Source of the DNA: a virus
Virus record (IMG/VR): IMGVR_UViG_3300031555_003913
Location: 1,126 to 65,125 of that record
Direction: 5' to 3' (one strand)
DNA length: 64,000 nt
Shown here: in pieces, positions 5,245 through 59,211 of the stretch
How positions within the stretch are numbered: position 1 is the first letter of the stretch
Layout of the letters: each line of letters begins with the position of its first letter
Notes under the pieces: generated by a model
The model's database searches: none
What the model saw: only the letters and a program-made list of their open reading frames with translations
Told to the model about the DNA's origin: nothing
Position numbers and translations under genes: made by a program

Positions 5245-6030
5245 ATGAAAAATGAAATTACAGTATTTAACAACGAAGTATTTGGAAATTTACGTAGTGT
5301 AAATATTGACGGTGAACCTTGGTTTGTAGGAAATGATGTTGCGGAAGCTTTAGGGTACGCTCGCCCACGTAAAGCCATTCTAGACCATGTGGACGAAGAA
5401 GACAAAATGAAGGACGTCCCAATTCGGGACCCCCATGGTGTAGAACAATATCCCACATGGATTAATGAGTCGGGATTATACTCATTGACACTAAAAAGTA
5501 AACTTCCTGCGGCAAAAAAATTTAAGCGTTGGGTAACATCAGAAGTTCTTCCTTCTATTCGGAAGACCGGCGCCTACATGTTGCCGGAAGTTCTGCAGCA
5601 AGCTACAGAGGATCCTGAGTACTTGAAATATATCGTCAACTTATTGAACGAAGATCAAAAACGTAAACAGTTAATTACAGTTGAAGTAGTGAAATTGAAT
5701 ACATCTTACCACGACTGGAATAATACACAAGTTACGCCACTGATAAATGAGTTACAAAAGTTTCATCCGTCTCATACAAACTATGAGATGTTAAAAGCTA
5801 CTTACCGTGCGCTTAAAGCATATGACGGATTTGATGTTTATGCTATGAGGGATAACTTTATAGCAGAGCAAATGCACATTGCAAAAGAAAATAATCTTGA
5901 AGTATCATCTGATGAATTTAGAGTTCCATATCTTTATATGATTTACGAAAACATGGAATGTCGTCTTCGATATATGAAGACGTTATATGAGATGATTGAA
6001 ACTGAGTATTCCCAGGGGGTGACCGCTTAA
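5245..6030 (+). CDS. BRO-N domain (antirepressor-like) protein
   Basis: FGNLRSVNIDGEPWFVGNDVAEALGY...INESGLYSL...AKKFKRWVTSEVLPSIRKTG signature. Confidence 0.9.
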   Translation: MKNEITVFNNEVFGNLRSVNIDGEPWFVGNDVAEALGYARPRKAILDHVDEEDKMKDVPIRDPHGVEQYPTWINESGLYSLTLKSKLPAAKKFKRWVTSEVLPSIRKTGAYMLPEVLQQATEDPEYLKYIVNLLNEDQKRKQLITVEVVKLNTSYHDWNNTQVTPLINELQKFHPSHTNYEMLKATYRALKAYDGFDVYAMRDNFIAEQMHIAKENNLEVSSDEFRVPYLYMIYENMECRLRYMKTLYEMIETEYSQGVTA

Positions 6031-9000
6031 TGTTTGCACCAAAACTTTATACGGTATATAAAATCCCTATGCGGGATATAGCGGCGGCTGATTACAACAT
6101 TGAACGGTCAGAGGATGAATTGCGGCGGTATAAAATCCGGCAACAAGATGGCAGTATGCTAAGACTTATTAGACTTATCACCGGCGATGATGGTCAATTC
6201 AATCCGTATATTATCTTTGTGAATATCGATAAGAAGGACGAAGATATTATCCGGCGGATAGTTATGGAGGGTTTCTGGCTTAACGGTCGGCACTTTATAA
6301 TGTCCGAGCGGTCGGCCTCTATGACACGAACTGGAATTCTGAGTTTTGTTGATGAAGAAATCGAACCGGAACTTAACCGGCGAATAACGATGGATATCGA
6401 GTTTGATAAAACTGTACTGAGTAAATAATACATTTGCTCCTCTGTGTGGCGACATACAGAGCAAACTCCTTTAATTGCTGGAACTCCCTTAGAGCATCGT
6501 CGGCTACAACATAATCATGAAATATAGATAGGTGTGAATGCGAAAAAACAACGATGATTGGGAAATCAGCAGCCAAGTCTCGAATAGAGAAAGGTTCATC
6601 GACTATTCCGTAAGGAAGTACGCTAAGCGGCGGAAATGGGGAGCGTCTCACTGAGATGAAGATATAGTCAGTGCTCTATGGAAACATAGAGAAATTGAAT
6701 TTGTGATAAAAATCTTAAATGAAAGGAGGAACAAAATGTTAATACTTGAACGAGAAATTGAAATGATAGCAGTTACAGAAAAAAATGCAAATTATTATCG
6801 TAATAAAGGATATAATGTACAACTTAGAATACCATTTAATGTTAAACCTATAGATCTTCCACCAGGCTCAAACAAGAAGGTATGGGTTAAATGTGATTAC
6901 TGCGGCAAAGAATATCAGATGGTATTTCAAAAATACATCAAGCGTGTTTTAGAGGCGACAGTACATAAATGTGCATGTAGAGAGTGTGAACATCTTAAGA
7001 TTGCAGAGAGCAATATGATTAATTATGGTATGAGTACCAATGCTTTGCCGGAAGTAAAAGCAAGGAAGTTACAATCCAACAGAGACAACTACGGTGTCGA
7101 TAACCCAATGCAACTTAAGAAGTTTCAAGATAAACAAAAACAGACAATGGTTGATAGATACGGTGTCGAATATTCTGCGCAAAGCTCTACATTAAGAGCG
7201 AAAACAATAAATACTTGGATGACGAATTATGGAGTAAATCACCCATCAAAATCAAATGAAATTTTAGAAAAGAGAAATAAGAATAATTTAGAAAAATACG
7301 GAGTCGAACATACCCTGCAGTTAGATTCGGTTAGAGAACAGATAGCGCAAACTTCATATAAGAATAGTACTTGTAAAGTCAGTGCAGAGCAGCTTCATCT
7401 AAAAGAATTGTTTAGTGCAGATCTGAATTATCCTATCGGGAAATATAATGCTGATCTTCTTCTTGCTGATGATGTGATTCTTGAACTTGATGGAAGTGGA
7501 CATGAGTTAAACATACTTTATGGAAATGTAAGTCAAGAAGAATTTCAGAGAAAAGAAGAACGACGTACAAGATATATTTTAAGCCAGGGATATAAGATTA
7601 TCAGATTCTCTCATAAGAGACATACACGTATTAGAGACTGGAAATATATAGACGCTTTGGAGAAATGCTTGGATAAGTTAGACGCCTATAATTGTGTGTG
7701 TTATGATTTTGATACAGATGAACTTATAGTATAAGACTTTTAATCACAAATTCAACTGTATGAGATTAGCGAACTTATACAGTAACAAATCAGAAATATT
7801 ATAGTTATAGAGGTTTACTCCTGAGCGCATGTCATATGTTAGAAGGATTCCGACCAAAAGTTATCGTTGTTCCAGATTACTTCCGCATAGTTCCGGATCA
7901 GCATATTAAGTACGCTTACGACGACACTATTGAGTTTATTGACAAAGAAGGTCGTGATCGAATTTGGACACAGAAATCTATTGGGCAAGATATAAGAGAT
8001 ATAGAAATTAATGCATTTGATGGATGTGGTATCCACCACCCTGCTATTTCTCGCCAGGTTGAAGAGATCCTTAGAAGTAAAACGCAGATGTCTAGTATTC
8101 TGTGGAGAATGCCTTGGATTAAAGGAGTAACCCATGAATTAGATTATTCATCTTTCTTTAATGAAAACGGAGTTCACACAATAAAGGATATGTGGGGAGT
8201 AGAACATGACGTGAATGATCCAATGATTATCTGTACTGAATCAATGTATAAAGGGTTTAAACATTTTAAGGTATATGGAGATGAACGGGATTGGGAACTA
8301 TATTGGGAAAAGTTTGAAAAATATGACCACTGTATTGGTATTGCGAAATGGAATTTTACCGCCGATGAAGAGCCGGTATATACCCGGGCAAACTATCAGA
8401 TACTCCAAGACCTTAACTTACCTTATGAACAATTTAGAGAACTTGCTACTTATAGTGTAGAGTGGGCTGAGAAAATTATCAGCGGCGACCCCCTCTACAC
8501 TTTTTGTTTTCTGGGAATGATGGCCGACAATCATGTTCCAAAGAATGATTACGCCGCGGCCATATTAAAGAATCCTGAAATGATTAAGGAACAGAGCGTA
8601 AAAAAATATCTGATGAGTTTGCTGAGTAAATATCGTGACGATATGAAGTGTGGGAAACTTTGGATGAAGGCAGCTTTTAAGTTTTTAACTCCAGACTTGA
8701 TTATGCTTATGCAACATATTGGTGGACTTGAACCAATCGGATGCCTGGAATCCAATGAGTTTTATTCTCATAATAAGGACGGCGTTATCCTTGGAGAACG
8801 GTTGATTGAAAGAAATCCTCATATCTGCAAATCCGAACATGTTATTCTTACTGGCGTTCAGAATGAATTAACAAACATCTACTGTTCACATTTGGATAAT
8901 ATTTGTATGATAAATTCAAAAAGTATTACGAACGCACGTTTGAATGGTGCCGATACAGATGGCGACCTTGTTTTCTTAATCGATAACCCATTGATGATGA

Positions 9001-10156
9001 GTGGTGTCGATCGAAATGCACAAGTTGTTATGGATACAGAAGATAAAATTACTGCAATGGCCGAAGAAGACACTCCGGAAAATAGAGTGTCTCTAGTATT
9101 GAGAACTATTAATTCTTTAATAGGCGAATGCAGTAATACATCAAGTTGTTTCCATAATAAGAAACCAAAGAGTGAAGAGGTAAAGAAAAAATATGAGAGC
9201 TACATTGACCTGCTCTCAATTATTAACGGTAATCGCTTTGCCGTTATAAAATTTCGTGAACCCCGCCCGGGGGTGTAGGGTTATACCCTGCTAACGGTCA
9301 ACTAAGCCGAAAGGCTAAGGTGGTAAGAGAACCTAAATCCATGCTGGATACGGTAATACCGTGCGAAGCACCGCAAGGTGAACGTGTAGAGACTAATGGT
9401 GATGAGTGTAACCATGTAGGAGAAGAGATAGGCACTTCTTCCAAGCGCGAAACTACATAGTAGAAGATATAGTCCACATTCCATGAAAATGGAAATTGTT
9501 TGAAGGCGATAGATTACGCAAAAACCGGGGTGTTATATAACATACCAAAACACATAGCAAAATATAGCAAACCCCTCCCCTACTTTATGAAGTATGCATC
9601 GGAGTACTACGGCGGCCTTCACACCTTCTCCAATGCGCCGAGCAATATGAATCGGCTCTGCAAAGATCTGGAGAAGTGGTCGCAGCGGCAGCATTACACC
9701 ATCAACAGCCGCGATTTCGATTGGACAATTATGTTGGATGATTCTATTCCACATGATGAAGATAAGCAGGAGCAGATAAATAGGACCTATCTTGAATTCT
9801 GCCGCGAGATGTCTACCCTCGCCCACGACCAGTCACAGATTCGTAAATATGGGGATGAATCACTGAGCAAATACGATGCACGTAACTTTACAATTAACTG
9901 GGGATATTATTACGATAGATATCGCGAACGTTGTCAGGAGATTTGCCCAGATATTAAAGAATTGGCAAACTTGGCAGTTAGAGCTTGCTATGAATATTAT
10001 CCTCAGAAAAAGAACAGTAAGTTTATGTGGCGTGTTGCCGGCGAAGGTATTGTACAAAATATTGACCAACAGACCTTCCCCCTTCCAATGCGGGATGATA
10101 AAGGTGAATATGAGTATTTGGGAAAACGCTATAGATTTGAAAATATAATTATATAA
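6030..10156 (+). CDS. yonO: YonO-like single-subunit RNA polymerase, spliced from exons 6030-6422, 7794-9230, 9503-10156 (827 aa)
   Basis: GADTDGD catalytic motif, RNPH and AIDYAKTG motifs; junctions read KTVLS|KYYSYRGL and SIING|KAIDYAKTG in frame. Confidence 0.88.
6423..7793 (+). mobile_element. Group I intron RNAP-I1 with homing endonuclease in P9
   Basis: P1 GAGU/GCUC with U-G; P10 AUUU/AAAU; P AATTGCTGGAA, Q AATCAGCAG, P7 GACTA (6601)/TAGTC (6665); terminal G7793; stem TTGAATTTGTGAT/ATCACAAATTCAA encloses the ORF. Confidence 0.92.
6736..7734 (+). CDS. Intron-encoded endonuclease, Vsr/DUF559-like PD-(D/E)xK domain with YGV repeats and Zn finger
   Basis: ADLLL...ILELDGSGH...GYKIIRF C-terminal motif; CDYCG; repeated NYGV units; GGAGG RBS. 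Confidence 0.8.
   Translation: MLILEREIEMIAVTEKNANYYRNKGYNVQLRIPFNVKPIDLPPGSNKKVWVKCDYCGKEYQMVFQKYIKRVLEATVHKCACRECEHLKIAESNMINYGMSTNALPEVKARKLQSNRDNYGVDNPMQLKKFQDKQKQTMVDRYGVEYSAQSSTLRAKTINTWMTNYGVNHPSKSNEILEKRNKNNLEKYGVEHTLQLDSVREQIAQTSYKNSTCKVSAEQLHLKELFSADLNYPIGKYNADLLLADDVILELDGSGHELNILYGNVSQEEFQRKEERRTRYILSQGYKIIRFSHKRHTRIRDWKYIDALEKCLDKLDAYNCVCYDFDTDELIV
9231..9502 (+). ncRNA. Group I intron RNAP-I2, ORF-less, 272 nt
   Basis: P1 AACGGU/GCCGUU; R GTAGAGACTA, S AAGATATAGTC; terminal G9502; splicing restores the frame. Confidence 0.92.
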
Positions 10157-10169
10157 GGGGGAATTTGAG

Positions 10170-11021: not shown

Positions 11022-11038
11022 AAAAGACCTGTGTATTA

Positions 11039-11103
11039 TGAAATCTAAGTATATAGACTTATAAGAATGTACAAAAAACAAACTTTTATATACTTAGATT
11101 TCA
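11039..11103. repeat. Perfect 17-bp inverted repeat
   Basis: TGAAATCTAAGTATATA ... TATATACTTAGATTTCA, 31-nt spacer. Confidence 0.85.
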
Positions 11104-11130
11104 AATACAAACACAAGGAGAAACGGAATA

Positions 11131-14761: not shown

Positions 14762-14767
14762 AAATGT

Positions 14768-15005: not shown

Positions 15006-16094
15006 ATGGGCAGAAAACCAAAAGTGGTGGCACCAGAGCCACCAGAGATAAAAAATGATATAAAACTTTACAAGTGTGTTTGTTGTGGGAAAGAAACAGA
15101 TACTCCTAAAGGCACATTTTACAAAAGCCAGAGTTCGATGTTTGAAGCCAATGATGGATATGCCCCATTATGTCAGAAATGTGCTCAAGCTAAGTTTGAA
15201 GAATTTTCAAACAGATTTGATGAGCGAACTGCAATGGTGATTTTATGTCACTATCTTGATGTACCTTTTTTCTACGCACTGTATGACAGCGTAAGAGTTA
15301 ATAATGATACATTTACAGTAGGCACCTATCTTAGACAGCTTAATCAAAAACAATACACTCGGAAGAGTTTTGTCAATACATTGCTCGATAAGAAAGAGCT
15401 AATGGTAGATGCACAGAAGTTTGAAGATATTAAAGAAAATACAAGATGGAAAATATCTGAGCAAAGAAATAAAAATAATGCAATTGATATTATTGGATAC
15501 GATCCATTTGAAGGATATAGCGAAGATCAAAGACGATTCTTGTTTAATAATATCATTAATTACCTCGAAGAAGATGGTATTGAAGATGATAATTTTAAGA
15601 TGTCTCAGATTATACAACTTGTAAATAACAACTACCAAATTAGCCAGGTTGATATGGCGATAGCCAGACTTGACGCTATAACACAGATTACTGATATACG
15701 AATTCTTCAGGCAGCTAAAAAGAGTCTTGTAGATGCGAATGATAAGATTGCCAAGGAAAATGGGATATCTGTTAAGAATCGACTGAATCAACAGGCTGGT
15801 CAAAATACATTCACATATAAGATTAAGCATATGAGAGAAATTGATATACCAGAAGCTGAGGCAAACTTTTATAATCAACTTAAAGGAATTGGTTCTCAAT
15901 GGGCTGCTAATATGAGTTTAAAGGCTATTCGTGAGAATGGTTTTTTTGATGAAAATGATTTCAAGGATATCCTTGAAAATCAATATAAGATGATTCAGGA
16001 TCTTCAGTCAAAGCTTGATGATGTTGAAGAATCCAATCGCTTACTCCTTATAGAAAATGATGAATTAAAGGAGGGCGGAAAACGTGGCAAGTAA
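15006..16094 (+). CDS. Zn-finger protein upstream of terminase (possible small terminase subunit)
   Basis: CVCC...CQKC; GGAGGT RBS; overlaps the terminase start. Confidence 0.6.
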   Translation: MGRKPKVVAPEPPEIKNDIKLYKCVCCGKETDTPKGTFYKSQSSMFEANDGYAPLCQKCAQAKFEEFSNRFDERTAMVILCHYLDVPFFYALYDSVRVNNDTFTVGTYLRQLNQKQYTRKSFVNTLLDKKELMVDAQKFEDIKENTRWKISEQRNKNNAIDIIGYDPFEGYSEDQRRFLFNNIINYLEEDGIEDDNFKMSQIIQLVNNNYQISQVDMAIARLDAITQITDIRILQAAKKSLVDANDKIAKENGISVKNRLNQQAGQNTFTYKIKHMREIDIPEAEANFYNQLKGIGSQWAANMSLKAIRENGFFDENDFKDILENQYKMIQDLQSKLDDVEESNRLLLIENDELKEGGKRGK

Positions 16095-18500
16095 AAATCA
16101 GAAAATTGCGATGACAGATACAAAATGGAATAATTTTGTTATGGATGCTAAGCTGTTGAGTTACTTCAGACGGAATCCATGTATTGCAGCTAAAGAACTT
16201 CTTTTTGTATCACTGCTTGATTCGCAGAAATATATACTAACTTCTTCGTGGAATACACCACAGAATGTTTGGGCTTGCTCTCGAAATTTTGGCAAGTCTT
16301 TTTTAATTGCAGTAATGGCTATTTTGAAGGCTGTTTTGTATGAAAATCAGAATATTTACATAATTAGTTCGGTTGGTTCACAGGCTAAATCCTTGGCGTG
16401 CTAGTCAGTAATGATTAGTATTATCAGGGGGTAAAATCGGCGAATCCTAAGTCATTTGATATGGCAACGCCGAGGTAAGCTGGCGGATAGCGAAAGGCCG
16501 CCAGACACCGTAACGCATAGGTGGTGAATAAATATAATCCACCCACGAGTGCCCCTCACCCTACTCTTTTGAGGGGTGAAAACGTATGCTGAACTTATTC
16601 GAAAGAATAAGAAATGTCGGATAAAAAGCCGGCATGATAACATTCAAAAGAAGGAAACTTTTTTAAAGATTCAAGAATTAGTACTTAGACAAGGTAGAAC
16701 TGCAGAGTCTTTTGACTTTCAAGGAATGCCAAATTATATACGACATGAGATTGTTACGAATCCGTCGAACAAAGATGGGTTTAAGCATTCACCAGAATCA
16801 TATTCCGTATCATTTTATAATGGTAGTACTATTTATACATTGAATTCAAAACCGGACAACATTAGAGGTTTACTGAATTGCACTAAGTTTGCCTCTCCAC
16901 TTAGTAATAAGTGTGCATGAAACTGAGGAAGAAAACTGGGAGCCTGAGATGGTAATCAGACTGGAAGGCTGATGGTAATACATTGGTCACAGGCAGAGCG
17001 TACCGGATGAAACTATTTATAGAATATAATTCCGGCAAGAGTCCTCGGCCCCTATTAGGGTGAAAAGGTACGCCAACCTTACAGGAATATGAACTGTAAG
17101 AACTATGGGATAAAAAGCCTGTAGGGTAATAATTGAAACGTGCAACCGTAATATTCTTCGACGAAGCGGCGTTTTGTTCAGAAGAAATTCTATCAATCGC
17201 TGCAGCCTTTGGTGCTCAGGACAATGACTTTAAAACCTCTGCATCAGAAAATTTTGATTTGAGAAAAAGACCAAAACAGGTTCCAGTCCAGGTGGTTTAT
17301 GCATCATCTCAGGATAGCATGGATACTGTGTTTTATAAAAACTATAAGAATTTCGCAAAAGAAATGATCGCAGGTAATCGTAATTTCTTTGTTTGCGATA
17401 TGCCATGTACAACAGCAATTCAGGTATATATGGATGGCGAGCCTCACGCACCTTTGTTATCACAGGATCTTGTTGATACTGAAATGAAAAAAAATCCTGA
17501 AAAGGCAAGGCGCGAATTCTATAATATTCCGACTATGGATGGTGGCGTAACTCAAATTATCAAATGGGGTACAGTCCGACGCAACGAAAAAACTATCATT
17601 CCTTATGCCGAATGGAAGCCGAACAATCGTATTGTTATGGCATTTGACCCTGCTCGTACAAACGACAACTCTATTCTTGGAGTTATGAATCTCTACGAGG
17701 ATCCAGAATTAGGATTATGTGGTCAAATCATTAATTGCGTAAATTTTATAGATACGGCAAGTCGAAATAAATATAAGCTTGATGTTAATAGGCAAGTTGG
17801 ATTACTGCGTCACTATATTGCTACATACAATGGAGATAATCCAGATTATGAATATATTGATATGATATATCTTGATGCTGGTGCCGGAGGAGGCGGTCAG
17901 CTTTATGGAGATTTATTACTAAATGATTGGTATGATTCAAAAGGTCGTAAACATCATGGTTTGATTGATAAATCAAATGAACTATATGATGGTTATACAA
18001 AAACATATCGTGATGCTGTAGATAAAATTCGACTAATTAATCCACGAGCATTACGTACTCAGATGGTAGAAGAGTTTATAGAATTGTTTAATCTCGGTGT
18101 GATCAAACTTCCAATAGAATATAGTGGTCAAGATTTTATTAGAATTCCAATTCCAGAAGACGAGAAACCAAAGCGCCGAGGAAAGCAATCTGAGGACGAT
18201 ACGTCCGATGATAAGTTGTATTATTTAAGCCAGGATGAAAAATTATCATTGTCTCAGATTGATCTTATGAAGACAGAAATTACATCTATCCATAAGTTTA
18301 CTAATCCTGATAATACTACGGTAAGGTATTCACTGCCTAAAGAAAAAGAAAACAAAATGCATGACGACCGTTTTTATGTGGCAATATTGCTTGCCCATCG
18401 TCTCTATGAACTTCGTCGTGAAAAAGCGATAAAGTCACGTAAAAAGACTAAAGATACTTCTGCCCTATTGCAAATGCGGGCACCAAAATTATATAGATAA
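16084..18500 (+). CDS. terL: Terminase large subunit, spliced from exons 16084-16386, 16651-16869, 17136-18500 (628 aa)
   Basis: Walker A SRNFGKS, Walker B IFFDEA, nuclease FDPA and HDDR; junctions GSQA|KETFLKI and NIRG|KRATVIFFDE. Confidence 0.9.
16387..16650 (+). ncRNA. Group I intron TerL-I1, ORF-less, 264 nt
   Basis: P1 GCU/GGC; P10 CCUU/AAGG; P7 GCATA/TATGC; terminal G16650. Confidence 0.88.
16870..17135 (+). ncRNA. Group I intron TerL-I2, ORF-less, 266 nt
   Basis: P1 AGAGGU/GCCUCU; P10 GUUU/AAAC; P7 GCGTA/TACGC; terminal G17135. Confidence 0.9.
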
Positions 18501-40200: not shown

Positions 40201-42753
40201 AATTTAGCAGTCGCAACATTAAAAGAGTTAAGCGCAAAAGAAAAACTAACAGACGCAGAAAAAGAACAGTTAATAGCTGCTCAAAACACTGTCGATGAAT
40301 TAGATGCCGAAGGCGATGCGTTATCATATTTGGCTACTCAATTATTGGATGCAGCAACTCAGACTGCATTATTAGAATCTAAGCAAAATGGTATAGCCGA
40401 TTCTAATTTCGCATCTGTATTACAGAGTCATGCTGCAGCACTTTTAATTGTAGCAGAAGCTGCAGGTCTCTCTGTCGATAACATTAAGGCTTATCTTGAT
40501 GCAATAAGATATAAGGAATATTATGAAAGCCATATCGCTAAGGGTGACCGTGTTTCAGATGACGATATAAAACGATATGAAGATAAGTTATCAATCATTG
40601 ATAAAAATCAAGAAACGGTTGATAAACTACACGATCTTCTTTATGGTGGCGTAGAGACTGATACGACGCCTCAACGTACCAAAGACCAATCCGGAAAAAC
40701 TGCAGCGGAAGAAGCGTATGAAAAAGCTAAGAAAAAGCTCGACAAGCAGTTGGAACGTAATAAGATTACATACAATCAGTACTATGAATCTCTCGTTGAC
40801 TTAGGCAACAAGTACTACAAGGGCGACGCTGAAAACATAAATGAGCATTATGCTACATTGGCTGATGTTCGTCGTGACGCTTACGCCAAGTATCAAGGTG
40901 ACTTGGATAAGAACCTTGAAAAAGGTATTATTTCTCTTCAGGTTTACCATGATAAGTCTATGGCCCTTTCTAAGAAGTGGCTTGATGGCCGCAAGGCTAA
41001 CGAAGAGGATTACAAAGAAGCTGTAGAAGCTATATATGACCAGATCAACGATTATTGGGGCGACCGTATGTCCAAGATGGAAACCCAGATGGATCGTTGG
41101 AATTTGGATCAGACATGGGATCCTGATTTAACAAGGGTAAAAGTCTGGGAAAATGAACTGGCCGCACTGGATGCTGACTATAAAGCCGGCCTCTTTGATT
41201 CAGAAAGAGACTATTTTGATAAGCGTTATGAACTGCTCGAAAAGCTAAGCGATGCTCGTAAAGAATCTTATGAAGCTGAGCTTGATTTAATCGAAGAACA
41301 AAAGGACTCTATCCAGGAGCTCATTGACCTTACAAGCGAAATGCTCAAACAGCAGAAGGAAGATGAGATCGAAGCCCTGGAAGAACAGGCAAAACTGTAT
41401 TCTGACATAGTCTCCAAGAAAAAAGAAGCGCTTGACATTACTCGCCAGGAGGCTGACTATCGACGTGAGTTGGAAGAGCAAACTGCTGCACTGACTGAAC
41501 TTCAGGCAAAGGCCGCAGTATTGGCGCTCGATGACAGTCGTGCCGGCCGAGCTGCATATCAGGAAGTTCTGAAGCAGATTAAGGAACAGCAGCAGACAAT
41601 TGCTGACACCCAAGCTGATCATACATACGAAGGCAGTATTACCGCCCTTGATGAAGCTGAAGCAGCTTATCAGGAATCCGTCGATAAGAAAATCCAGGCA
41701 ATCCAAGATTTGTTAGACCACGCCGGCGAATGGCTTGAATATGTGTACTCTTATATCAAGACCACCAATCCATCTAAGTTGTTCGCTGAACTGCGGGACT
41801 ATAATTATCAGTATGGCTCTGGCATAAATGATACTGTTGACGAAATTCAGAAATCGTCTGCTCAGTTGCTGAGTTCCTTTAATAGCAGTATTCCAGATAT
41901 CCTTGCTGCCTTAAAACAACAGAAAGAATCTGCTGAAGCAGCTATTGAAGCGGCCGGCAATGAAGAGGACTCTACTCCATCCGGAAACTATAAAAGCCAG
42001 ATTAGTTCTGCTCTAAATAAGAAGATACAGGCAAGCACAACTGAGAACAACAAACATTCTACCAACCGTGGATTGGTGACTGATATCAAAAAAGAGACAG
42101 GTCTTGATTCATGGTATGATGAAAAGAATAAAGTTATCTATATGGGTTCCGAAGGCGACCGCAGGGTGACTGCCGGTGCTTATAACCTAATTGAACAGCT
42201 TCGTGAATTAAACAATTCAGGTGGAACGCGCAAAGAAAAAGAAGTCGCCATGGAAGAGATCATGACAAAGCTTAAGCGTAAATGGTCTTATACAGGCGCT
42301 TATCTTGAATGGAAAGGCAATACGGCGAAACTCTATAAGAGCAAGGATTTACAGGTCTTCCATACTGGTGTACAGCAAGGTATTGTTGGCGGCAACCAGT
42401 CTGGCAACAGACATCAGCGCGAACTACTTGCTATGCTTCAGGCTGGCGAAATTGTTCTGAACCGACAGGACCAAAATGTACTGCTTGCAAATCTGCAGAC
42501 GCTTGAAACTATGGCAACTACATTAAAGAAGCTTCAGCTGGATACTATGCCGGTTGGCAATGTAGGGGCAACAGAGGTCAACGTAACTGTTCAGGCACCG
42601 ATTACTATTACTGGTTCTGCTGATGCGGATACATTGAAGGAACTCGAAAAGTTTAAGAAGAATATTTCTAAGGATGTTCTTGGCGAGGTTACTGACGCAA
42701 TGAAGAAACGTGGATATAGCAGCAACACTGCTGCAAATGCACGTAAGAAGTAA
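31236..42753 (+). CDS. Tape measure protein, spliced from exons 31236-33649, 35483-35831, 38395-42753 (2373 aa)
   Basis: TP901-type core LDTAMTELKKVT...VGTALKSLSMRLR; junctions DVSRA|NVGELLFGKRQ and NNVG|TFNS; coiled coils; FHTG...AMLQAGEIVLN near the C-terminus. Confidence 0.88.
34027..34200 (+). CDS. Small intron-encoded protein (57 aa)
   Basis: MDKKFDKEYSTQFVDEMKFLQEHGINYTFVKTINGITTYKYEKTPQLF...; manually translated. Confidence 0.6.
   Translation: MDKKFDKEYSTQFVDEMKFLQEHGINYTFVKTINGITTYKYEKTPQLFYWLRIFYCR
34231..35427 (+). CDS. Intron-encoded endonuclease: Zn-finger repeats plus C-terminal Vsr-like PD-(D/E)xK domain
   Basis: Four CxxH/C...CxxC units; LPFDFYLEDYNIAIEFDGILHY...IKLIRVPYW. 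Confidence 0.82.
   Translation: MKYSYEEIKSMFDERGYELVTTKEELDGMAVTDKIKYICPKHRDCGILSITYHHLKRNRGCKYCGREKAAEKRTKPLDEFRAKAKDCLESKGLEFVNVFRSKDTNGRAVIMVEFICPKHRKYGIQTTKYGNLMFRETNGCKYCIGKDIPKEEIFKQIQDILPHIEIISEFNGVSKPIKYRCNIHNYEGWSTCQNLLAGRACYYCGLEKLRKHNTLSQDEFVERVCKINKDIGIIGEYRGFDYPVKVHCNRCGNTWDAPVYSLYRREHGCPVCNMYTGEGVIYELLTQWGYNFDTQHRFKDCVDKKPLPFDFYLEDYNIAIEFDGILHYIPKILKRGMTQETADYSHKKTLEHDFIKESYCADNGIKLIRVPYWEYDEGNVPYYLFDHLVEYGAMELIT
36317..36427 (+). CDS. 36-aa single-TM peptide (type I toxin-like)
   Basis: MKKNFYEKYWWIPHVASSVALVVSLLTLIVRLLLIL; AAAGGA RBS. Confidence 0.5.
   Translation: MKKNFYEKYWWIPHVASSVALVVSLLTLIVRLLLIL
36508..36535 (+). promoter_or_regulatory. Sigma-A type promoter inside the intron
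   Basis: TTGCAT-16 nt-TATACT, upstream of the small ORF and GNAT gene. Confidence 0.55.
36582..36743 (+). CDS. Putative antitoxin (53 aa)
   Basis: MTFKPTNVAFIIAPEKAEDFLKSK...; GAAGGGGGG RBS; overlaps the GNAT start by 8 nt. Confidence 0.6.
   Translation: MTFKPTNVAFIIAPEKAEDFLKSKDASAKKAMERFYAHQPKKGIKTPYKGSNE
36736..37317 (+). CDS. GNAT acetyltransferase, TacT/AtaT-like toxin candidate
   Basis: FSCGN..MD..L, LPAIKI..FAVDKRYQ, A..FYERNGF motifs. Confidence 0.75.
   Translation: MNRYRFGEEIEYKYNLLEADDFNNLQLFSCGNTQMDYHLHNEVIVEGKLRSEDGLYYKFYDEKTNEILAVVSLATSGILRQIGTYSHILPAIKIDIFAVDKRYQKMHFNEESQSSYIPDEHYYFSDEVIGNIIRRCMEISENFALAQFVVAYADVKAYRFYERNGFGNFENFMIEEHNMEVSKNIPMYLNLFE
37321..37353. terminator. 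Bidirectional terminator within the intron
   Basis: AAAAGACCAAGCTA-A-TAGCCTGGTCTTATTTT. Confidence 0.65.
37352..37444 (-). pseudogene. C-terminal relic paralogous to 37833..38327
   Basis: TGFLDVAAVAGVAGMNKMVNACDNCGYTWK* versus TGFVDVAAAAGGVGSNKMINCCNDCGHTWK*. Confidence 0.8.
37474..37599 (+). CDS. Small protein (41 aa)
   Basis: AAAGGAG RBS; MTYELVLQNMSDYESYLIKL... Confidence 0.45.
   Translation: MTYELVLQNMSDYESYLIKLVESDALLLDKVFVFPFKFVLR
37600..37821 (-). CDS. Zn-ribbon protein (73 aa)
   Basis: CPKC...CKYCG; AGGAG RBS. Confidence 0.7.
   Translation of the reverse strand: MEKYLKAFCDDNPKFELECPKCRRSETFKSKDVFKASKFLYKCKYCGEDISVDTSKFAREFKKALNKVGIYVD
37833..38327 (-). CDS. Double Zn-ribbon protein with Gly/Ala hydrophobic segment
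   Basis: CKEC/CPECG, CPKCGS...CNDCG; GAGGAGGG RBS. Confidence 0.8.
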   Translation of the reverse strand: MSYSYELEDVFICKECSTATWFDCCADLICPECGGEMIYTGSDDDEWSYRFYDVYHRDPQNGFELFEFVTKEFLKDTDYDLEKHQKVYNSMIEEAEQITREYNSKPHCPKCGSTNLGKTKRGFKWGRAIATAAVTGFVDVAAAAGGVGSNKMINCCNDCGHTWK

Positions 42754-49980: not shown

Positions 49981-52900
49981 ATGGGTTTATCTTTTGAAGA
50001 ATCTATGAAGAAGATTCTTGCAGAAAGTGAAGCGGCGGCAGTAGCAGAGCCTGCGACTATGGCAGTTGCGGATTATGGCATTGCGACTGCGGACGTAGGT
50101 ATCATGACGCTAGATGAGGCACCGCTTATCGCTGCTTATTCCGGTGAGGAATCCTGGATGGAAGATACCAATTATCTTCACTATGCAGAATACTCAGATA
50201 ATAATATATCTATAATAGATGACGAAAAAAATATTGCTTTAAACGAAAAGCAATTTAATATAACACAAGAAAGCAATTCTCAATTCATTCCGTTTGAAAT
50301 GCCGAGATATTATGATGGTTTTGACTTATTAAAAGCAAGACTGTTTATTCATTATGTAAATAAAAACGGTGATGAAGATAGAGATGCAGTTGTAAATGTT
50401 ACTTACTCCGATACCAAGATACGTTTTGCTTGGTTGGTTGGTAAGACAGCTACCGCTGTTGAAGGTAAATTAGAATTTGAAATCGAAGCAATTGGAACAA
50501 ATTCTAAAGGCAAAGAATATGTTTGGAAGACTAAGCCGAGCGGAGATCAGTTGAATGTACTCCGCTCTCTTTCTGGCAATGGAATGATTAAGCCGGATGA
50601 AACATGGATTACGAGCTTCTTAACTCAGGTTACTGAGCAGGTTGCAGAGGCTCAGGCAGCGGCTCAAGAAGCTTCAGCGGCGATTTCAACGGTTGAAGAA
50701 TATGCTCGTCAGGCTGCAGATTCTGCAGCAGAAGTTTTGGCAGTAGTTGATACCGCTAAAGCTGACTTAGAGGCTGCCGTTGAGACTGCAGTTGTTGATG
50801 AGGTATCCGCTGCGCTGTTAAATTACTATACTAAGCCAGAAGTCGATAGTATTATTGCTAATATTGATATTTCAGATCAATTAGAAGAACTGCAGAATCA
50901 GATTGATTCTGTGGATGGTTTGGCAAATTTTAATGTTGAATATGATGGCTCCACTATGACTTTTTATAATGGTTCCGCCATCATAAAAGAAATTAAAATA
51001 AATAGCGACCCATCTGTAGAATGGACCACTGCTTATACCGCAGGTGTTGATGAGAAAATCTTAGCCGCTAAAACAGAATCAGCGACCGCATTAGAAGAAT
51101 ATAAGGCCACTGTCAACTCCGACCTGGAAAATATTCACTCTGATATTGATGGTCTGCCAGAAACCCTGGCCACCGATTATTACAATAAGATTGATGCGGA
51201 TGCAAAATTTGCTACGAAAGAGGCTTTAAACACAACCAACACTACTGTATCAGGACTTTCTTCTTCTATAGATACTAATAAGGGCAATATTACTGCTCTT
51301 GGTACTAAAGTTGGAGAACTTGAAACTGCTATTAGCGGTATAGATCAGTCCCCTCGCCTCACTTATGATGCTACTTATAATACCGAGGGTGACTATACCT
51401 TTAAGTTAGAAGAAATTCAAAACGAAGGTGATTCTGATAATGAAGTTCGTACTGTAAAGGCACAGTTTGTCATTCAGGGTGGCAGTGGTGGCTCTACGAC
51501 CAGCAGTGTTTTAAAGATTGAATATATTACTAAAACGCCTTTAGTCGTAACGGCTAATGATAAGGCTGAAATTAAATATAACTTCTCTGGCACTGACTCA
51601 TCTGGTGATGCAGTGATGGAAGGTACTGCTACATGGAAAGTAAATGGAGCTATTGTAGCAACCAATACTGCAGTTGCAGGTGAAAATTTATTTGACATCA
51701 CAAACTATCTTGGTATTGGAACCCAGAAGGTCAATTTAAGTATCACCGATGACGCTGGTAGTTTAGTAACTAAAACTTGGACAGTTCAGAAAGTGGATGT
51801 TCGTCTTGAATCAGATTTCAATGATAAATTAACCTATCCAATTGGGGATATTACTTTAGACTATACACCATATGGCGCGATATCTAAGGATGTTCATTTT
51901 ATTATGGATGGTAAGGAAATTGGTACGGTTACTACTTCCGCTTCTGGTATTCCTATGGGATATACTCTGCCGGTTCAGTCTCATGGTGCGCATTTAGTTG
52001 AAGTATATATGACTGCTACAGTCAATAATAATACGATTGAGTCAAATCATGTACTGAAGGATATTATTTGGTATGATGCTTCTAGTGACGCTCCTGTTAT
52101 TAGTACTGTATATCAAGATTTTACAGCACGTCAATACGATACTACTAATATTATTTATACTGTATATGATCCTGCAACAGAATCCCCTTCTGTTGAATTA
52201 GCAATAGATGGCATTGTAGTATCAAGCCGTAAGTTAGAATCTAACACTCAGACTTGGCAGTTTAAGTCATCTGATGTTGGCACTCATGTACTGACAATTA
52301 CTTGTGGGGAAACAGTTAAGACACTTAAAGCTACCATTGAAAAGATTGATATTAATCTTGAACCTGTAACAGCAGGATTAGTATTTGACTTTAATCCATC
52401 CGGAAAGTCAAATAACGATGCTGATAGACTATGGACGAGCAATGATATTGCAATGACAGTATCTGATAATTTCGACTGGGTAAATGGTGGGTATCAGATT
52501 GATGCCAATGGCGATCAATATTTCTGTATTAAGGCAGGCACATCCGCAGAGATTAATTATAAGCTGTTCGAGGATGACGCTAAGAGAAATGGTAAGGAAT
52601 TCAAGCTAGTATTTAGAACTACAAATGTTGCAAAACCAGACGCTATATTCCTTTCTTGCATAGATAATACTACAGGGTCAGACCATATTGGTATTCAGAT
52701 GGATGTTCATGAGGCTAATATTTATGCTCAGGCAGGTAAATTAGATCTCTCCTACTCTGAAGAAGATATTATTGAGTTTGAGTTTAATATTAGTAAGAAT
52801 ACTGAAGCAATTCCTATGGTGATGGGTTATGAAGATGGTGTATCTACCAGACCTATGGTTTATGATGATTCATACAACTTCACCCAAAATACACCTCAGA

Positions 52901-55900
52901 TTATTAGCTTAGGTTCTGCCGACTGTGACTTACACATCTATAGATTTAAGGTATATAATACATCTCTTACCGCGAGAGGTATTTTAAATAACTTCATCGC
53001 TGATGCACGTAATGCAGAAGAAATGATTTCTCGTTATGAACGTAATCAGATCTACGATGAAAATCAGAACTTAGACCCGGATGTATTGGCTGAAAAATGT
53101 CCGTGGTTAAGAGTATATAAGGTGTCTGCTCCTTATTTTACTAACAATAAGAGTGACAAAGTGCCTGGTACTACTATTCAGCAAATTTATAAGGGTGGCG
53201 ACCCTGTTCTGGATAACTGGACTGCATATAATTCTATGCACTCGGGGCGAACTTCAACTTGCCCCTTGGCTATGGAAACATAGTCATAAGCTTTGCGGAA
53301 GAAAACGGGAATGCTGAAATGCAAATCCGAATGGAAGGCTGTTAGTAACGCAATAGTCACATGCAACGCATAGCAGGTGAACCTGTCATAGACAGAATAT
53401 AATCCTGCCACGAGTCCGCAATACCTAAACGCTAAGGCGCATGGTAAAAAGATATGCTGAACTTATACAAAATAAATAAAAACATATAACACATTTCAAA
53501 TAGTCATCCACGTGATGGCTTTTTTATTTTGCAAAAAATATCCAATAAGGAGGTGTATTGTGATGGAAGAAATTTGGAAACCGATTCAATATGAAGGCTA
53601 TGAAGTTAGTAACTTCGGAAGAATTAAAAGTTATAAATATGATAAAGAGAATGGAAAAATTCTAAAACCGAGTCGTGATACAAAGGGATATTTACAGTTG
53701 GATTTACGTATCGGTGGACGGAAATATGAAAAAAGAGTTCATCTTGCAGTACATAGACTTGTTGCGATGGCGTTTATTCCAAATCCTGAAAATTTACCTC
53801 AAGTAAATCACAAGGACGAAAATAAAGAAAATAATCATGTTACCAATCTTGAATGGTGTACTAATGAATATAACGGTAGATATGGAACGCACGATGAACG
53901 CGTTGCACAAAAACGAAGAAAACCTGTTTATTCTATAGATATTGATGGTAATAGAGAAGATTTTGAAGGATTGAGAGTAGCTGGTAGGGCTATGACAGGC
54001 AATCAAAGCGATTCTGGAAGTCAGATTCGTTATGCTATTACACATCACAGCGCTGCTTATGGAAGACAATGGTTTTACAGATAAAATAATTGAAATGTTT
54101 TTATTTATGCAAGTATAAGAACTATAGGATAAAAAGCCTATAGGATAACAAAATTGAAGGAACGTCCAGTAATAACTATGGAGCTGCAGGCAGAAATCTG
54201 GACTTCATTATGAATAAGTCTGGTATTGAAGGTGTAGATCCATACTTTATTTTAGGTGATGGCAGCAGAGTTACAGAAATTAATATGACTCGTACTTCTG
54301 TTCCAGTTGCTTATTTAAATGCAAAAGTCAATATTGCTTCTTCAAATAATATGACGAATCCGATGTTGGCAAATAGATATAATGAGTTCAACCCTTATAA
54401 GAGAAAGTTTGTCCGTGGCGAAGGTATAGATACAAGCTTCATTAAGGACACCATGGAATTCCATAATTGCGTAATCTTTATTCAGGAGACTAATGAAGAT
54501 TTGTCTACTCATAGAGAATTTGCAGACACAAACTGGCATAAAACAGCGTAAATGTGCCAGTATAAAACCAATTCTAATATACGGCGAAACCCTGATAGGA
54601 CAGGCAACGCCTTGGAAAAAAAGATAAAACATAATAATTAAAATCATAAAAAAGAAGGTGATTTAATGAACGAGATTTGGAAAAATATAGATGATAGGTA
54701 TTCCGTCAGCAATTTAGGCAGAGTCAAGAGTAATTATGCGAATAAAGAAAGAATACTTAAACCAACGCCTGACGTTCGTGGATATTTAAAAGTAGATTTA
54801 AGACACGGAGAAAAACGAAAGGGCATGATGGTTCATAGACTCGTTGCTTTCGCCTTCATTGAAAATCCAGACCCTGAAAATTTCAAAGAAGTCAACCATA
54901 AAGACGAAGATAAGACTAATAATTGCGTTGATAATTTGGAATGGTGTGATACTAAATATAATTGCAATTATGGCACAAGAAATAAAAGAAAGGGCGAGAA
55001 TTGCAAAAAGCGTGTTTGTTCTGTGGACAAAAATGGAAATGTAACTCATTACAGTTCTCGTAATGAAGCGGCAGAATTAATTGGCATAGATGCAGCTAGT
55101 ATTAGCAAATGCTTGAGTTCAAATTTTTCTCAAAATATAACAGCAGGTGGAATGTTATGGTTTTATGATGATGAAAATATAGAACAAATGATTAGAGAAA
55201 ATAACATCAAAGCAAAGCCATTTGAAAAAGCTGTTTATTCTATAGATGTCAATGGAAAAATCGAAAGATATTCCTCTGCATCACAAGCCCATAGAGAAAC
55301 CGGGATTAATAATATAACACGTTCTATTAAAAATAACACTTTGGCAGGTGGTAGACATTGGTTCTACGACAATTAAATAAATATTAAATAAAGATGTTTT
55401 ATATTTTTACCAACAACGACTAAACGAATTGGGCGCGGATAGTTTCCGCGTATGTAATAGTCTGATCTCACGAAATAATCCTATAATCAAGAAACGTGAG
55501 AAGAGAGGTCAAGTGTAAAGACACTTTCGGAAGCACCTCTCTCGCCTGCTTTATGCAGGTATAAATAACTGACTACCGACAGTTATTAGTAACATAATGT
55601 TTTACGCAATCGGTAACATCGGTGACTCTAAGAAGACCGATAAAACTCGTCTGACAGATATCAACGATAAATACGAATGCTGTGTAGAAATCATGGATGT
55701 AGAACTTCCACTGTCTGATTGGCCGGCTAATACTATGTATAATGCCATGGGTTATAAGGTTGATGAAAAGACAGAAGAAAAGATTTACACATGGGCAAAG
55801 GATGAAAATCTTGGTATTCTGCATGAACTTATTGACGGTGAATATGTACTAACTCAGGACGAACATGTTGATTTAACTAAGACTTACTATGTAGATATTC

Positions 55901-58900
55901 TTGAGCATGATGACTTCAGCGAAGATTTCACTTATGGATGGAGATATATCTATGAATGTGATAACGATGAAGAAAATGAGGAAGTTTTTGATTATTGCAA
56001 ACAAAAATGGATCGATCTTTACAGATTTATAACCACGTCTACAGACGATGAATTCAAAGAACACTTTGAAGATTACTTCGTTAAAGATTCTGCGTTGTAT
56101 TATTATCTGTTTACTACGAGATATTGTATGATCGACAACAGAGCAAAGAATTCATTTTGGCATTATGGTAAAACTGGAGAGGTAGATGCAGATGGCAATC
56201 CTATTCGTAAGTGGGACCTGTCATGGGCATACGATTGCGATAGTTCTCTTGGCTTGAACAACTACGGTACTCAAGTATATCGTTATGGCCTCGAAGATAC
56301 CGACGTAGACGAAAACGGTGTTGAGGTATTCAGAGAATCTGACAGTACTTTCTTTAGTAGAGTACGCGACCTCTTCCCTACCGAACTCAAGGTTCTGTAT
56401 AATACTCTTGAATCAAAGAATGCTTGGCACGCAGAAAGTTTCATTAACAAAGCCGATGCATGGCAGAGCGAGTTTCCGGAAGAGCTGTGGAGAATTGATA
56501 TTGAAAGAAAGTATCTTCGTACTTATAATGAATCTTTCATTAATGGTGAAGGTGATTCTCAATTCTTGGTTAATATGGCAAACGGCAAGATGAAATATCA
56601 TCGTCGTCAGTGGGAACGCAGTCAGGAAAAGTACATGGCGTCAAAATATCAGAGCTCTACCGCTTCCTCTGATAATGCGGTATTCCGTTGTACCGTTCCT
56701 ACCGGTGAAGTTGTCGTTCAACCAAATTATAGATTAAAATTAATTCCTTATGCGTACATGTATCTGAATGTTAAATATGGCACTCAAAGCCCTATTCAGT
56801 TACGCGCAGTTCCTAATGTAGAATATGAAATTCCATTTGAAGGGACTTCTGCAGACATTATTGATGTATATAGTGCATCATTAATCCAATCCTTCGGCGA
56901 CCTTTCCACCTGTTATCCTGCTACTGTAGATACCAGTAAAGCGTCGAAAATCAAAGAGCTGATTATTGGTAACAAAACTGATGGGTATGACAATCCAAGT
57001 TTAACTACTTTAACTACAGGTGCAAATTATTTGTTGGAAACTTTGAACGTAGAAAATGTATCTGGTTTAACTCAGGCTTTAAATCTGACAGTATTGAATA
57101 ATTTACGTGAACTTCATGCACATGGATCTAATATTGGCGGCGTTACATTTGCCAATGGTGGTCGTATCGAGATTGCAGAATTACCTGCCATCGGTGCTTT
57201 ATCAATGAAAAATCTGGCATACTTATCAGATTTGAACATTGTTTCTCTTGATAAATTAACAACCGCCACGATTGAAAACTGCAACACTATTGATATTAAA
57301 GTTCTATTAGAGCAAGCCACAAAGCTTAACCGTGTCAGAATAATCGGGATTGATTGGGCACTGGATGACACTTCCCTACTTGAATCTATCTATGATATGG
57401 CCGGTATCGATAAGAGTGGCTATAATATTCCGCAATCTGTATTATCAGGAAAAGTACATGTTCCTGTAATTAGACAGCAGCAGTTATACAATTATCAGCA
57501 AGCTTGGTCTGACCTTGAAATCACGGCAGACACAATCATTGAACAGTTCCCTGTTACCTTTGTAAATGAAGATGGCACAGTTCTGGATGTTCAGTATGTT
57601 GATAAAGGTTCTGATGCTGTTGACCCTATTACAAGAGCTGATAATCCAATTCCTACTCCAACAAAGGAAAGTTCTATTCAGTACGATTACACCTTTGATA
57701 AATGGGATTCTGTGTTAACAGGTATTTTTGCGGAAAGAACGATTACTGCAATGTATGCTGAATCTATTAGATCCTATACTATAAAGTATGTGTCTAAAGG
57801 TGTAACTCTTCAAGAATCTACAGGTTTATACGGTGAAAATGTCATCTATGAAGGCTCTATTCCTACATACACTTTAGAAGAAAGTGCTTATACCTACTAT
57901 TTGTTTAATAGATGGGATAAGAGTGGATTTATTGACGGAGATAAGGTTGTTAACGCAATCTTTGACTCATTTGTATATACCCCTACTGCTTTAGAAGGTA
58001 AGGAATTAGCCGACATGACACCAGTTGAAATTTATGCATTGACCAAGCTTGGACTTGATACGGTTACATCTGTAGACATTCAGGATGGCGATGACTACTC
58101 TTTTACAATTGGGTATGATGTTGATTACGATGATATTGAATCCGTAAACATCATTACAGAAAAGACTACATTTACTGGATCTAATTATATTGATACTGGT
58201 ATTCAGTTGTTTGAAGAAGATAGAGATTTTGTACTGGCTGTTGATTATAAGATGGCTGAAGGCAATACTCTGAATAATGTTCTGATGCAATGTTTCCAGG
58301 CCAATGGATCTAACGGTATTAAGTTATGGTATAACTCTGGCGTAAAGTTTACATGGGGCACTGCCTCTAACGATGCTGCCTATGTTGGTAAGAGAGAAAT
58401 GTTGGTTATCCGCCATAAGAAAGGCGAAAATAATCTAACTATCTACAACTCTAATTTAGATGGCACTACATTTGTAACAGTTGAATTGGAACGTAATAAG
58501 TCTACTTCGACAACAAGTACACTTGTATTTGGCTGTGCAAAAGCAGACGATGGTGCATACGAAAACTATGCAACTGGAGACATATATTGGTGTAAGTTAT
58601 GGTATAAGGATCTCGGAGAAAAAGCATGTGAAAAACTTTCTAGCTGGATTCATGAGGATATTACACTTGAAGTATGTGGATTTAAGAAATATTACTTAAC
58701 TGAAAACCCATCAAAGAGATGTACATTTAGTATGCTAGCAACTCATTTGTTAGATCGTAACAGACGATATAATGCAAACAACAGTAATGTTGGTGGTTGG
58801 GCAAGCTCAGCATTAAATGCATACTTGAATGGTCGGTTATATAATGCACTGCCTGATCAGATGAAGTTATTAATCAAACAGGTTACCGTATCCTCTTCTG

Positions 58901-59211
58901 TTGGCCAGCAATCTACAGAAATTAGTACGTCAGAATGCTATATTACTGTTCCTGCCGTAATTGAAGTGACGAATGATTCAACGTTAAATATAGATCCATA
59001 TATTTATGAGGGCACAACCATCTCATATATGATTTCCAACGATATGAGAAAACGTGCTTATGTGGATGGTAACTACGGTGCTTATTGGCTGCGCTCTCCA
59101 AATGCAGGCTACGCAAATAACTATGTATATCGTGTTGAAAATGATGGTTCTATATACGGATTTAGTAATCCATCAAACTCCCTTGGAGTATTAATTGAAA
59201 TATCTATTTAA
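49981..59211 (+). CDS. Giant tail/adhesin protein with CotH-kinase-like domain, spliced from exons 49981-53248, 54157-54539, 55600-59211 (2420 aa)
   Basis: Junctions HSGQ|GTSSNNYG and NWH|FYAIGN; IDNRAKN...YDCDSSLG; LRR-like and LamG-like regions; YWLRSP C-terminus. Confidence 0.8.
53249..54156 (+). mobile_element. Group I intron Tail-I1 with HNH endonuclease, C-G 5' splice pair
   Basis: P1 GGGGC/GCCCC; P10 CUU/AAG; P7 GCATA/TATGC; terminal G54156. Confidence 0.88.
53563..54084 (+). CDS. NUMOD4-HNH homing endonuclease
   Basis: EIWKPI..YEVSNFGRIK; VHRLVA...VNHKDENKENN...NLEWC. Confidence 0.9.
   Translation: MEEIWKPIQYEGYEVSNFGRIKSYKYDKENGKILKPSRDTKGYLQLDLRIGGRKYEKRVHLAVHRLVAMAFIPNPENLPQVNHKDENKENNHVTNLEWCTNEYNGRYGTHDERVAQKRRKPVYSIDIDGNREDFEGLRVAGRAMTGNQSDSGSQIRYAITHHSAAYGRQWFYR
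54540..55599 (+). mobile_element. Group I intron Tail-I2 with HNH endonuclease inserted before P7 (P6 region)
   Basis: P1 ACUGGCAU/GUGCCAGU; P10 GCGUAAA/UUUACGC; P7 GACTA/TAGTC downstream of the ORF; terminal G55599. Confidence 0.9.
54666..55376 (+). CDS. NUMOD4-HNH homing endonuclease with two NUMOD1-like repeats
   Basis: VHRLVA...VNHKDEDKTNNCVDNLEWC. Confidence 0.9.
   Translation: MNEIWKNIDDRYSVSNLGRVKSNYANKERILKPTPDVRGYLKVDLRHGEKRKGMMVHRLVAFAFIENPDPENFKEVNHKDEDKTNNCVDNLEWCDTKYNCNYGTRNKRKGENCKKRVCSVDKNGNVTHYSSRNEAAELIGIDAASISKCLSSNFSQNITAGGMLWFYDDENIEQMIRENNIKAKPFEKAVYSIDVNGKIERYSSASQAHRETGINNITRSIKNNTLAGGRHWFYDN

Follow-up and report, generated by a model that had tools for sequence, protein, structure and literature searches.

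The stretch analysed here (the window) covers 64,000 bases of the virus record IMGVR_UViG_3300031555_003913, which consists of one contig of 65,125 bases and represents a gut-type phage genome. Within it, the genes for a YonO-like single-subunit RNA polymerase (RNAP), the large terminase, the tape measure protein (TMP) and a giant tail protein each consist of three same-strand pieces that, in the tables of open reading frames (ORFs), are separated by stops or frame changes (Table 1). We assign a probability of about 0.85 to the reading that each of the eight intervening sequences is a self-splicing group I intron, a kind of mobile selfish element. Together they occupy 8,537 nt, or 13% of the 65,125-nt genome. 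The nearest named protein relatives of the phage come from Thomasclavelia phage TR-TP1, Enterocloster phage PMBT24 and an unverified human-faecal phage clone, all gut Bacillota phages, and a megablast search of positions 5000-25000 against phages returned no near-identical phage record.

Table 1. Interrupted genes of the window and their introns; lengths of genes are those of the proteins obtained by splicing in silico.
Feature	Position	Strand	Length	Parts	Remarks
YonO-like single-subunit RNAP gene	6030..10156	+	827 aa	exons 6030-6422, 7794-9230, 9503-10156	
RNAP intron 1	6423..7793	+	1,371 nt	core 6423-6691; endonuclease gene 6703-7734	3' hairpin and tail ending in G7793
RNAP intron 2	9231..9502	+	272 nt		no ORF
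Large terminase gene	16084..18500	+	628 aa	exons 16084-16386, 16651-16869, 17136-18500	phrog_2 on exon 1
Terminase intron 1	16387..16650	+	264 nt		no ORF; variant-P7 group I type
Terminase intron 2	16870..17135	+	266 nt		no ORF; variant-P7; directly before FFDEA (Walker B-like) codons
Tape measure (TMP) gene	31236..42753	+	2,373 aa	exons 31236-33649, 35483-35831, 38395-42753	
TMP intron 1	33650..35482	+	1,833 nt	core 33650-33997; endonuclease-like ORF 34231-35427	
TMP intron 2	35832..38394	+	2,563 nt	core 35832-36160	no endonuclease gene
Giant tail protein gene	49981..59211	+	2,420 aa	exons 49981-53248, 54157-54539, 55600-59211	DUF6273 at C terminus
Tail intron 1	53249..54156	+	908 nt	HNH endonuclease gene 53512-54084 in P9 loop	variant-P7
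Tail intron 2	54540..55599	+	1,060 nt	HNH endonuclease gene 54666-55376 in P6 loop	canonical type

The intron borders were set from homologue alignments combined with reading of the sequence, the joins being located by aligning uninterrupted homologues onto the window; where a join was ambiguous, the one that ends the intron in G was chosen. Spliced in silico, the four genes contain no internal stops. Uninterrupted homologues from other phages align in one piece over seven of the eight joins, and single BLASTP high-scoring segment pairs (HSPs) cross both joins of the RNAP, the terminase (residues 4-624 or more of the spliced protein in four homologues) and the tail protein (residues 1-2420 in three homologues), as well as TMP join 1. 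The intervening sequences are absent from the homologous sites of the RNAP genes of TR-TP1 and PMBT24, of 9 of 12 terminase genes and of 11 of 12 tail genes from IMG/VR (the twelfth, at 28% identity, is also one frame), and from TMP site 1 in 3/3 and site 2 in 2/3 relatives. A sequence-only reading of this DNA had proposed that four genes contain two group I introns each, eight in total, with junctions that restore frame and conserved sequence, and had predicted that gene callers would report these genes as fragments; our results bear out each of these statements. Its expectation that the spliced proteins would align contiguously with intron-less homologues holds for the seven joins just mentioned, TMP join 2 being bridged by 7-17 residues only.

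The predicted RNA architecture leads to the same conclusion. The conserved group I core, consisting of P3-P8, P4-P6 and the P3/P7 pseudoknot, is recovered in four introns by alignment to the whole of the Rfam model RF00028, in tail intron 2 by folding and in the variant introns by covariation, giving five introns with the usual phage-type core and three with a variant P7. All eight frame-restoring joins can place G as the last nucleotide of the intron. A U before the 5' splice site is near-invariant in group I introns; here the 5' exon ends in U at six of the eight, and a clear U-G pair is present in P1 of RNAP introns 1 and 2, terminase intron 2 and tail intron 2. Phage introns of subgroup IA, such as those of T4 and of the Staphylococcus phage Twort, have an extra helix between P7 and P3 and P9.1/P9.2 extensions; their ORFs are housed in the loop of P6 or P9, and their short A-rich 3' tail has G as its last base. 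The window introns share these features, the likeness being one of description and not of sequence, and the three variant introns differ from the T4 and Twort introns in the sequences of P7 and J8/7.

The assignment of the polymerase to the YonO type, also made in the sequence-only reading, is upheld by a Pfam match to PF05183 (RdRP) on exon 2 (8.2e-8, 31.8 bits, cut-off 23.8) and by 25-27% identity to SPbeta yonO in tblastn (best 26.9%, over ~400 aa, E 2e-16). SPbeta YonO is a single-subunit RNA polymerase of late genes, and the two proteins are homologous members of the same Pfam RdRP family. Identity to TR-TP1 gp3 reaches 45% by tblastn. This 864-aa protein is encoded by one ORF that matches the window at 6030-6425, 7794-9230 and 9503-10141, and a single HSP aligns its residues 1-860 with residues 1-825 of the spliced RNAP; the aspartate-rich ADTDGD of exon 2, which we take to be the metal-binding catalytic motif, is aligned with CDFDGD of gp3. 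The yonO-type homologues examined, including those of TR-TP1 and PMBT24, each form one uninterrupted ORF, in contrast to the window gene with its two interruptions. RNAP intron 1 gives the highest RF00028 score of the set (89.4 bits, 6413-6691), and the alignment places a U-G pair in P1 at the splice site between AGU and AAA; the domains of its ORF are DUF7487 (1.1e-18), DUF4379 (1.6e-5) and DUF559 (2.4e-5). Both RNAP intron 1 and TMP intron 1 have the endonuclease-like ORF after P9 and a 3' end made of a hairpin and a short A-rich tail. RNAP intron 2 scores 33.6 bits (E 8.4e-5), under the 50-bit gathering score of RF00028, pairs AACGGU/GCCGUU with U-G in P1, and has the 3' end UUUG. Full-text literature searches met no group I intron in a YonO-type polymerase gene among the papers that they listed, and the supplementary tables of PMC11878797 and PMC2504315 may list further intron-bearing genes.

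The tape measure protein is recognised by PF10145 on exon 1 (9.2e-24) and by phrog_4211 on exons 2 and 3. A relative search with exon 3 gave nothing; relatives were reached through contigs of tail-protein loci, and in one of them exons 2-3 correspond to a single uninterrupted frame of 2,547 aa. All three homologues align across join 1 (aa 805). The placement of TMP intron 1 is ambiguous by a few bases within a 5-nt repeat, and GC joined to U is the only join that both ends the intron in G and gives the homologues' ...AN-V/I-x-ELLxGKRQ; the resulting SRA-NVGELLFGKRQ agrees with both of the two homologues that keep the motif. RF00028 matched this intron at 33641-33997 (31.9 bits, E 1.7e-6) when the search was narrowed to 401 bases and did not match it in wider searches. 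Its ORF has a DUF723 match (3.1e-7), with other domains below cut-off. In one relative (L033, 5962-7200) we observed an insertion in tape-measure exon 1 that contains an ORF resembling that of TMP intron 1.

TMP intron 2 appears to be a group I intron whose peripheral loop is filled with unrelated genes. RF00028 matched it at 35822-36159 with 79 bits in one run. Its core and P9.1 hairpin are followed by a 10-bp long-range stem (36184-36193 with 38367-38376), and the loop of about 2.2 kb that this stem would close holds cargo ORFs in both orientations: one small and membrane-like, one of 53 aa, one acetyltransferase-like (phrog_1758) and three zinc-ribbon ORFs on the minus strand. The 3' end is either G38391 or G38394. 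Overlapping the 3' strand of the stem and facing the zinc-ribbon ORFs is a near-consensus promoter-like site on the minus strand (38380-38352; TTGACC, 17-nt spacer, TG, TATAAT; 11/12 matches). Another relative (L035, 9545-11936, from G005) has a homologous intron at the same codon, with a similar 3' tail and a long-range stem in the matching place that is kept through compensatory changes (13 bp). Its cargo differs and consists of an SPP1-type holin, a CHAP/PG-binding lysin and a minus-strand zinc-ribbon ORF; if the homologous-intron reading holds, a lysis cassette would reside inside an intron. Exon 3 of the window gene has no ATG and no ribosome-binding-like sequence ahead of it and starts directly after a typical intron 3' tail. 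Because exon 3 lacks its own start signal, and because the homologous intron of L035 keeps the stem, we read TMP intron 2 as one large intron, its splicing being the least certain of the eight.

The two introns of the giant tail protein gene each carry an HNH endonuclease gene. The ORF of tail intron 1 matches NUMOD4 (50.3 bits, 2.9e-13) and HNH_3 (33.7 bits, 2.7e-8; cut-off 24.8), and joining C to AA gives Gln, as in 4/4 homologues, with a 3' tail that fits the variant family. An alternative join with U and G was rejected, since it would cost a conserved residue and make the tail 8 nt longer. The ORF of tail intron 2 matches NUMOD4 (38.1 bits) and an I-HmuI NUMOD-like domain (37.6), HNH_3 being below cut-off at 20.7; a 25-nt stem flanks this ORF, which splits the core. 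No Rfam match was obtained for tail intron 2, including a search with its 3' half alone. Folded without the ORF loop, it forms an 8-bp P1 with U-G at the splice site, P3, P4, P5, P6, P8, P9, P9.1 and P9.2, the 7-bp P3 bridging 850 nt across the ORF, and P7 was read by eye as GACUA (55418-22) with UAGUC (55458-62). Six of the 12 tail relatives (L018-L022, L026) have an insertion of about 1.1 kb at another, third site, which separates exon-3 residues 215 and 216 and lies about 640-1,790 nt into the exon-3 match. It weakly matches a window HNH endonuclease and is probably another intron.

Several observations weigh against the reading of all eight elements as splicing group I introns. RF00028 scores two of the eight above its gathering score (89.4 and 79), two below it (33.6 and 31.9) and leaves four unmatched; we give these blanks little weight, because detection was erratic, the 79-bit match to TMP intron 2 having been lost in two other runs that covered it. 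The 5' exon ends in C at TMP intron 1 and tail intron 1. In the former, this C stands opposite A in the P1 hairpin, which Rfam draws too; in the latter it is paired to G in the P1 GGGGC/GCCCC. P1 of terminase intron 1 (CAGGCU/GGCGUG, read by eye) has one mismatch, and a convincing P1 for TMP intron 2 was looked for and not found. TMP join 2 (aa 921) is bridged by just 17 aa in one homologue (p33) and 7 aa in another (p34), the third (p35) having its own intron there. TMP intron 2 is also 2.56 kb long, with an internal promoter-like site and antisense genes, and its long-range stem is one of 26 inverted repeats of at least 10 nt in the region and not statistically special alone. A search for sequencing runs with positions 14001-24000 listed no RNA run. 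Our data show where the elements lie, that their removal restores the frames, that homologues lack them and what architecture their RNA has; that they are spliced, and how efficiently, we infer.

These points give some substance to the possibility that certain elements, most likely the 2.56-kb TMP intron and the two introns with C sites, no longer splice, so that separate polypeptides are made or the genome is defective. In keeping with such a state are the C at -1 in two introns and, for TMP intron 2, the lack of a clear P1 and the presence of antisense ORFs and of a strong promoter-like site on the minus strand; so is the matching split arrangement in L035, which makes a stable two-gene condition possible. 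Set against this are the absence of an ATG or ribosome-binding-like sequence for TMP exon 3, which begins immediately after an intron-type 3' tail, the lack of own starts in the internal exons, which encode 73-128 aa, the compensatory changes that preserve the stem in L035, and the uninterrupted tape measure and tail proteins of relatives. We therefore consider loss of splicing unlikely, and favour the reading that all eight introns are spliced; the two C-for-U sites may indicate slow or protein-assisted splicing.

Under the reading that we favour, none of the four proteins could be translated whole until the introns of its gene had been spliced out of the mRNA. Four introns contain endonuclease or endonuclease-like genes (two HNH/NUMOD4, two with treble-clef and DUF559/Vsr-like parts), three are gene-less and one, of 2.56 kb, holds unrelated cargo. 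The four with their own homing-endonuclease genes probably spread by homing, and the three gene-less introns would be passengers. Free-standing genes of mobile-element type lie among ordinary genes at 12615-13769 (GIY-YIG/NUMOD1 endonuclease) and 10248-11021 (NUMOD4 and helix-turn-helix protein), and their products could mobilise ORF-less introns in trans.

The sequence-only reading had raised the possibility of a regulatory checkpoint. Spelled out, the idea would be that the phage retains its introns to time its development, the polymerase being spliced twice before late transcription and each late gene requiring two further splicings. Late development would then be a chain of required splicings, two of them at possibly slow non-U-G sites, in which the splicing rate sets the timing of assembly and the introns are not neutral passengers. 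The arrangement alone, with the polymerase and three late genes all interrupted, speaks for this idea. However, the introns are absent from 9/12 terminase and 11/12 tail relatives, other relatives have introns at different sites, and homing-endonuclease genes in four introns are a hallmark of selfish spread; we find a checkpoint unsupported, and consider both such a timing device and the rate-limiting chain slightly less likely than the loss of splicing. That there are two introns per gene looks like chance, because introns are patchy in relatives, at these or at other sites, which is the pattern of selfish homing.

The genomes of Bastillevirinae are much larger than that of the 65-kb phage described here. 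They have been reported to contain 45 introns, with up to six in one genome (Table 3 of PMC11878797), and two introns interrupt the terminase gene of the Bacillus phage Moonbeam (PMC4299906). As in the window, terminase genes of these phages hold more than one group I intron (two or three; PMC11878797, PMC4299906), and HNH/NUMOD4 and Vsr-like endonuclease ORFs lie in loops that split the core (PMC11878797). In contrast to the window, the intron-bearing genes given in the portion of PMC11878797 available to us encode DNA polymerase, terminase, thymidylate synthase and ribonucleotide reductase, and tail genes are not among them. A closer parallel in gene content is provided by prophages of the Bacillus cereus group, in which Tourasse and Kolsto (2008, PMC2504315) described group I introns in tape-measure genes (TMP-IVS1/2/3, at three sites), terminase genes and tail-tube genes. 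Like the window, these prophages have in-frame introns in late or virion genes, several sites per tape-measure gene, TMP and terminase introns together in one prophage, related introns fitted to different sites through P1, and many introns without an endonuclease gene (PMC2504315). They differ in number, the consulted passages naming three introns in prophage E33L (TMP-IVS1, TMP-IVS3a and term-IVS1) compared with eight in 65 kb here; no intron in the gene of an RNA polymerase or of a tail protein of 2,400 aa is reported there, nor is a cargo-filled intron described (PMC2504315). Of the sequence-only claim that the density of introns is unusual, the high count (eight, 13% of the genome) stands; the rarity of introns in late genes was overstated, as such introns appear in the consulted parts of all three papers (PMC2504315, PMC4299906, PMC11878797).

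The three variant introns, namely the two terminase introns and tail intron 1, have the P7 sequence GCRUA/UAYGC. The terminase introns resemble each other, and their motifs also occur in tail intron 1; neither terminase intron is matched by RF00028 at E<=10. Terminase intron 1 has U at -1 and a 3' G, and P1 of terminase intron 2 (AGAGGU/GCCUCU) contains the U-G pair. A tblastn search of terminase exon 3 against phages gave no match. In IMG/VR we found 13 terminase relatives, 12 of which cover all three pieces; nine (L004, L005, L007-L013) have the gene in one frame, and the other three (L006, L015, L016) have insertions of their own with variant motifs at the window's two sites, an intron of the window's type being present at site 2 in L006 and L016. 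Terminase exon 3 has further insertions in L015 (5242-5488) and L016 (2948-3311), one of them with canonical P and Q motifs. Beyond these relatives, the exact pattern from the 3' part of the terminase introns is found in at least 113 viral contigs and at least 120 bacterial genomes, among the matches listed mostly Bacillota and filamentous Cyanobacteria. Pieces of the lineage were also found by blastn in Staphylococcus, Clostridium, Alicyclobacillus, Leptolyngbya and crAss-like phage records, mostly at unannotated places. The motif AAGATATAGTC allowing <=2 mismatches occurred at chance level (28 found, 28.0 expected), its intronic matches being two exact and one with 1 mismatch only.

It could be argued that the three variant elements constitute a separate ribozyme class outside group I. 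RF00028 matches neither the terminase pair nor, at E<=0.1, any of the 18 related loci carrying the variant (0/19 loci tested overall), and the P7 and J8/7 sequences are unlike the usual ones. The helices, however, follow one another as P3, P4-P5, P6, P7 5' strand, an extra hairpin P7.1, P3 3' strand, P8, J8/7, P7 3' strand, P9, P9.1 and a tail ending in G, which on the predicted pairings is the group I order, including the P3/P7 pseudoknot. In a MAFFT alignment (A1) of 51 non-redundant members, both terminase introns among them, the predicted helices P3, P4, P6, P7, P7.1, P8, P9 and P9.1 pair in 87.2% of cells versus 28-43% with slid partners, a comparison in which the structure was drawn from the tested sequences themselves; this favours one control and is a further point on the opposing side. 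The covariation score is 0.58 versus <=0.137 for slid partners, 0/500 shuffles reach the observed value, and both partners vary in 39/47 pairs; some misalignment affects the P4-P6 columns (70-81% paired). The variable pair of P7 is G-C in 55 and A-U in 33 sequences without a mismatch (88/88 with both strands located; in 17 of the 105 sequences the 5' strand was not located by the regular expression). The P4-P6 region is reminiscent of bacterial tRNA introns.

A covariance model of the variant's 3' half (R1, with tail intron 1 outside the training set and a rough calibration of E) matches tail intron 1 in two halves, at 53358-53500 (60.4 bits) and 54087-54159 (40.6 bits), and in RNAP intron 1, which Rfam confirms, it matches the P7-P9 part (31.8 bits, E about 2e-5). 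Because of these matches we regard the variant as homologous to ordinary group I introns. R1 found no further copy in the window; at E<=10 it matched neither TMP intron 1 nor tail intron 2, and its match to TMP intron 2 was weak (16.3 bits, E 0.066). The terminal G and a P1 guide pairing in all three variant introns, clean in two (U-G; C-G) and with the single mismatch in terminase intron 1, also argue for group I membership. In addition, according to the authors of PMC11878797, parts of phage introns escape the Rfam and GISSD models. A separate class is accordingly very improbable, the least credible of the three alternatives weighed here.

Explanations of other kinds were dismissed: inteins by the stop codons, and by frame changes between the pieces in 3/4 genes, group II introns by the shortness of the elements and the lack of group II ends, translational bypass by lengths of 264-2,563 nt, which are far too long, and an assembly chimera by the presence of a matching intron type at matching sites in relatives. 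No ninth intron was found, all Rfam or variant-model matches in the window falling within the eight elements. One candidate, at the GIY-YIG gene (12615-13769), was rejected since the gene upstream is broken by a frame change in an eight-A run with no insertion. That gene (11295-12510) is metallophosphatase-like and changes frame at 12259-12332, inside the run of eight A, where ...NVYDKK resumes as IDYLCTAHKHH... in another frame; we attribute this to sequencing error or slippage and not to an intron. Three consecutive tRNA genes (14299-14940) lie between the early region and the packaging genes.

Our results establish no new mechanism: the introns are ordinary mobile elements, and a role for them in control is unsupported. 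What is notable is their density, their presence in the genes of a YonO-like polymerase and a 2,420-aa tail protein, the two non-U splice sites and the gap in annotation, and the novelty is modest. Automatic annotation would break the four large essential genes into about a dozen fragments, and contigs of related gut phages are affected as well. Standard detection of introns is incomplete, half of the eight being without an Rfam match and one widespread lineage being missed. Two natural C-for-U splice sites, together with a polymerase gene that needs splicing, provide test cases for the ways in which these ribozymes depart from textbook rules.

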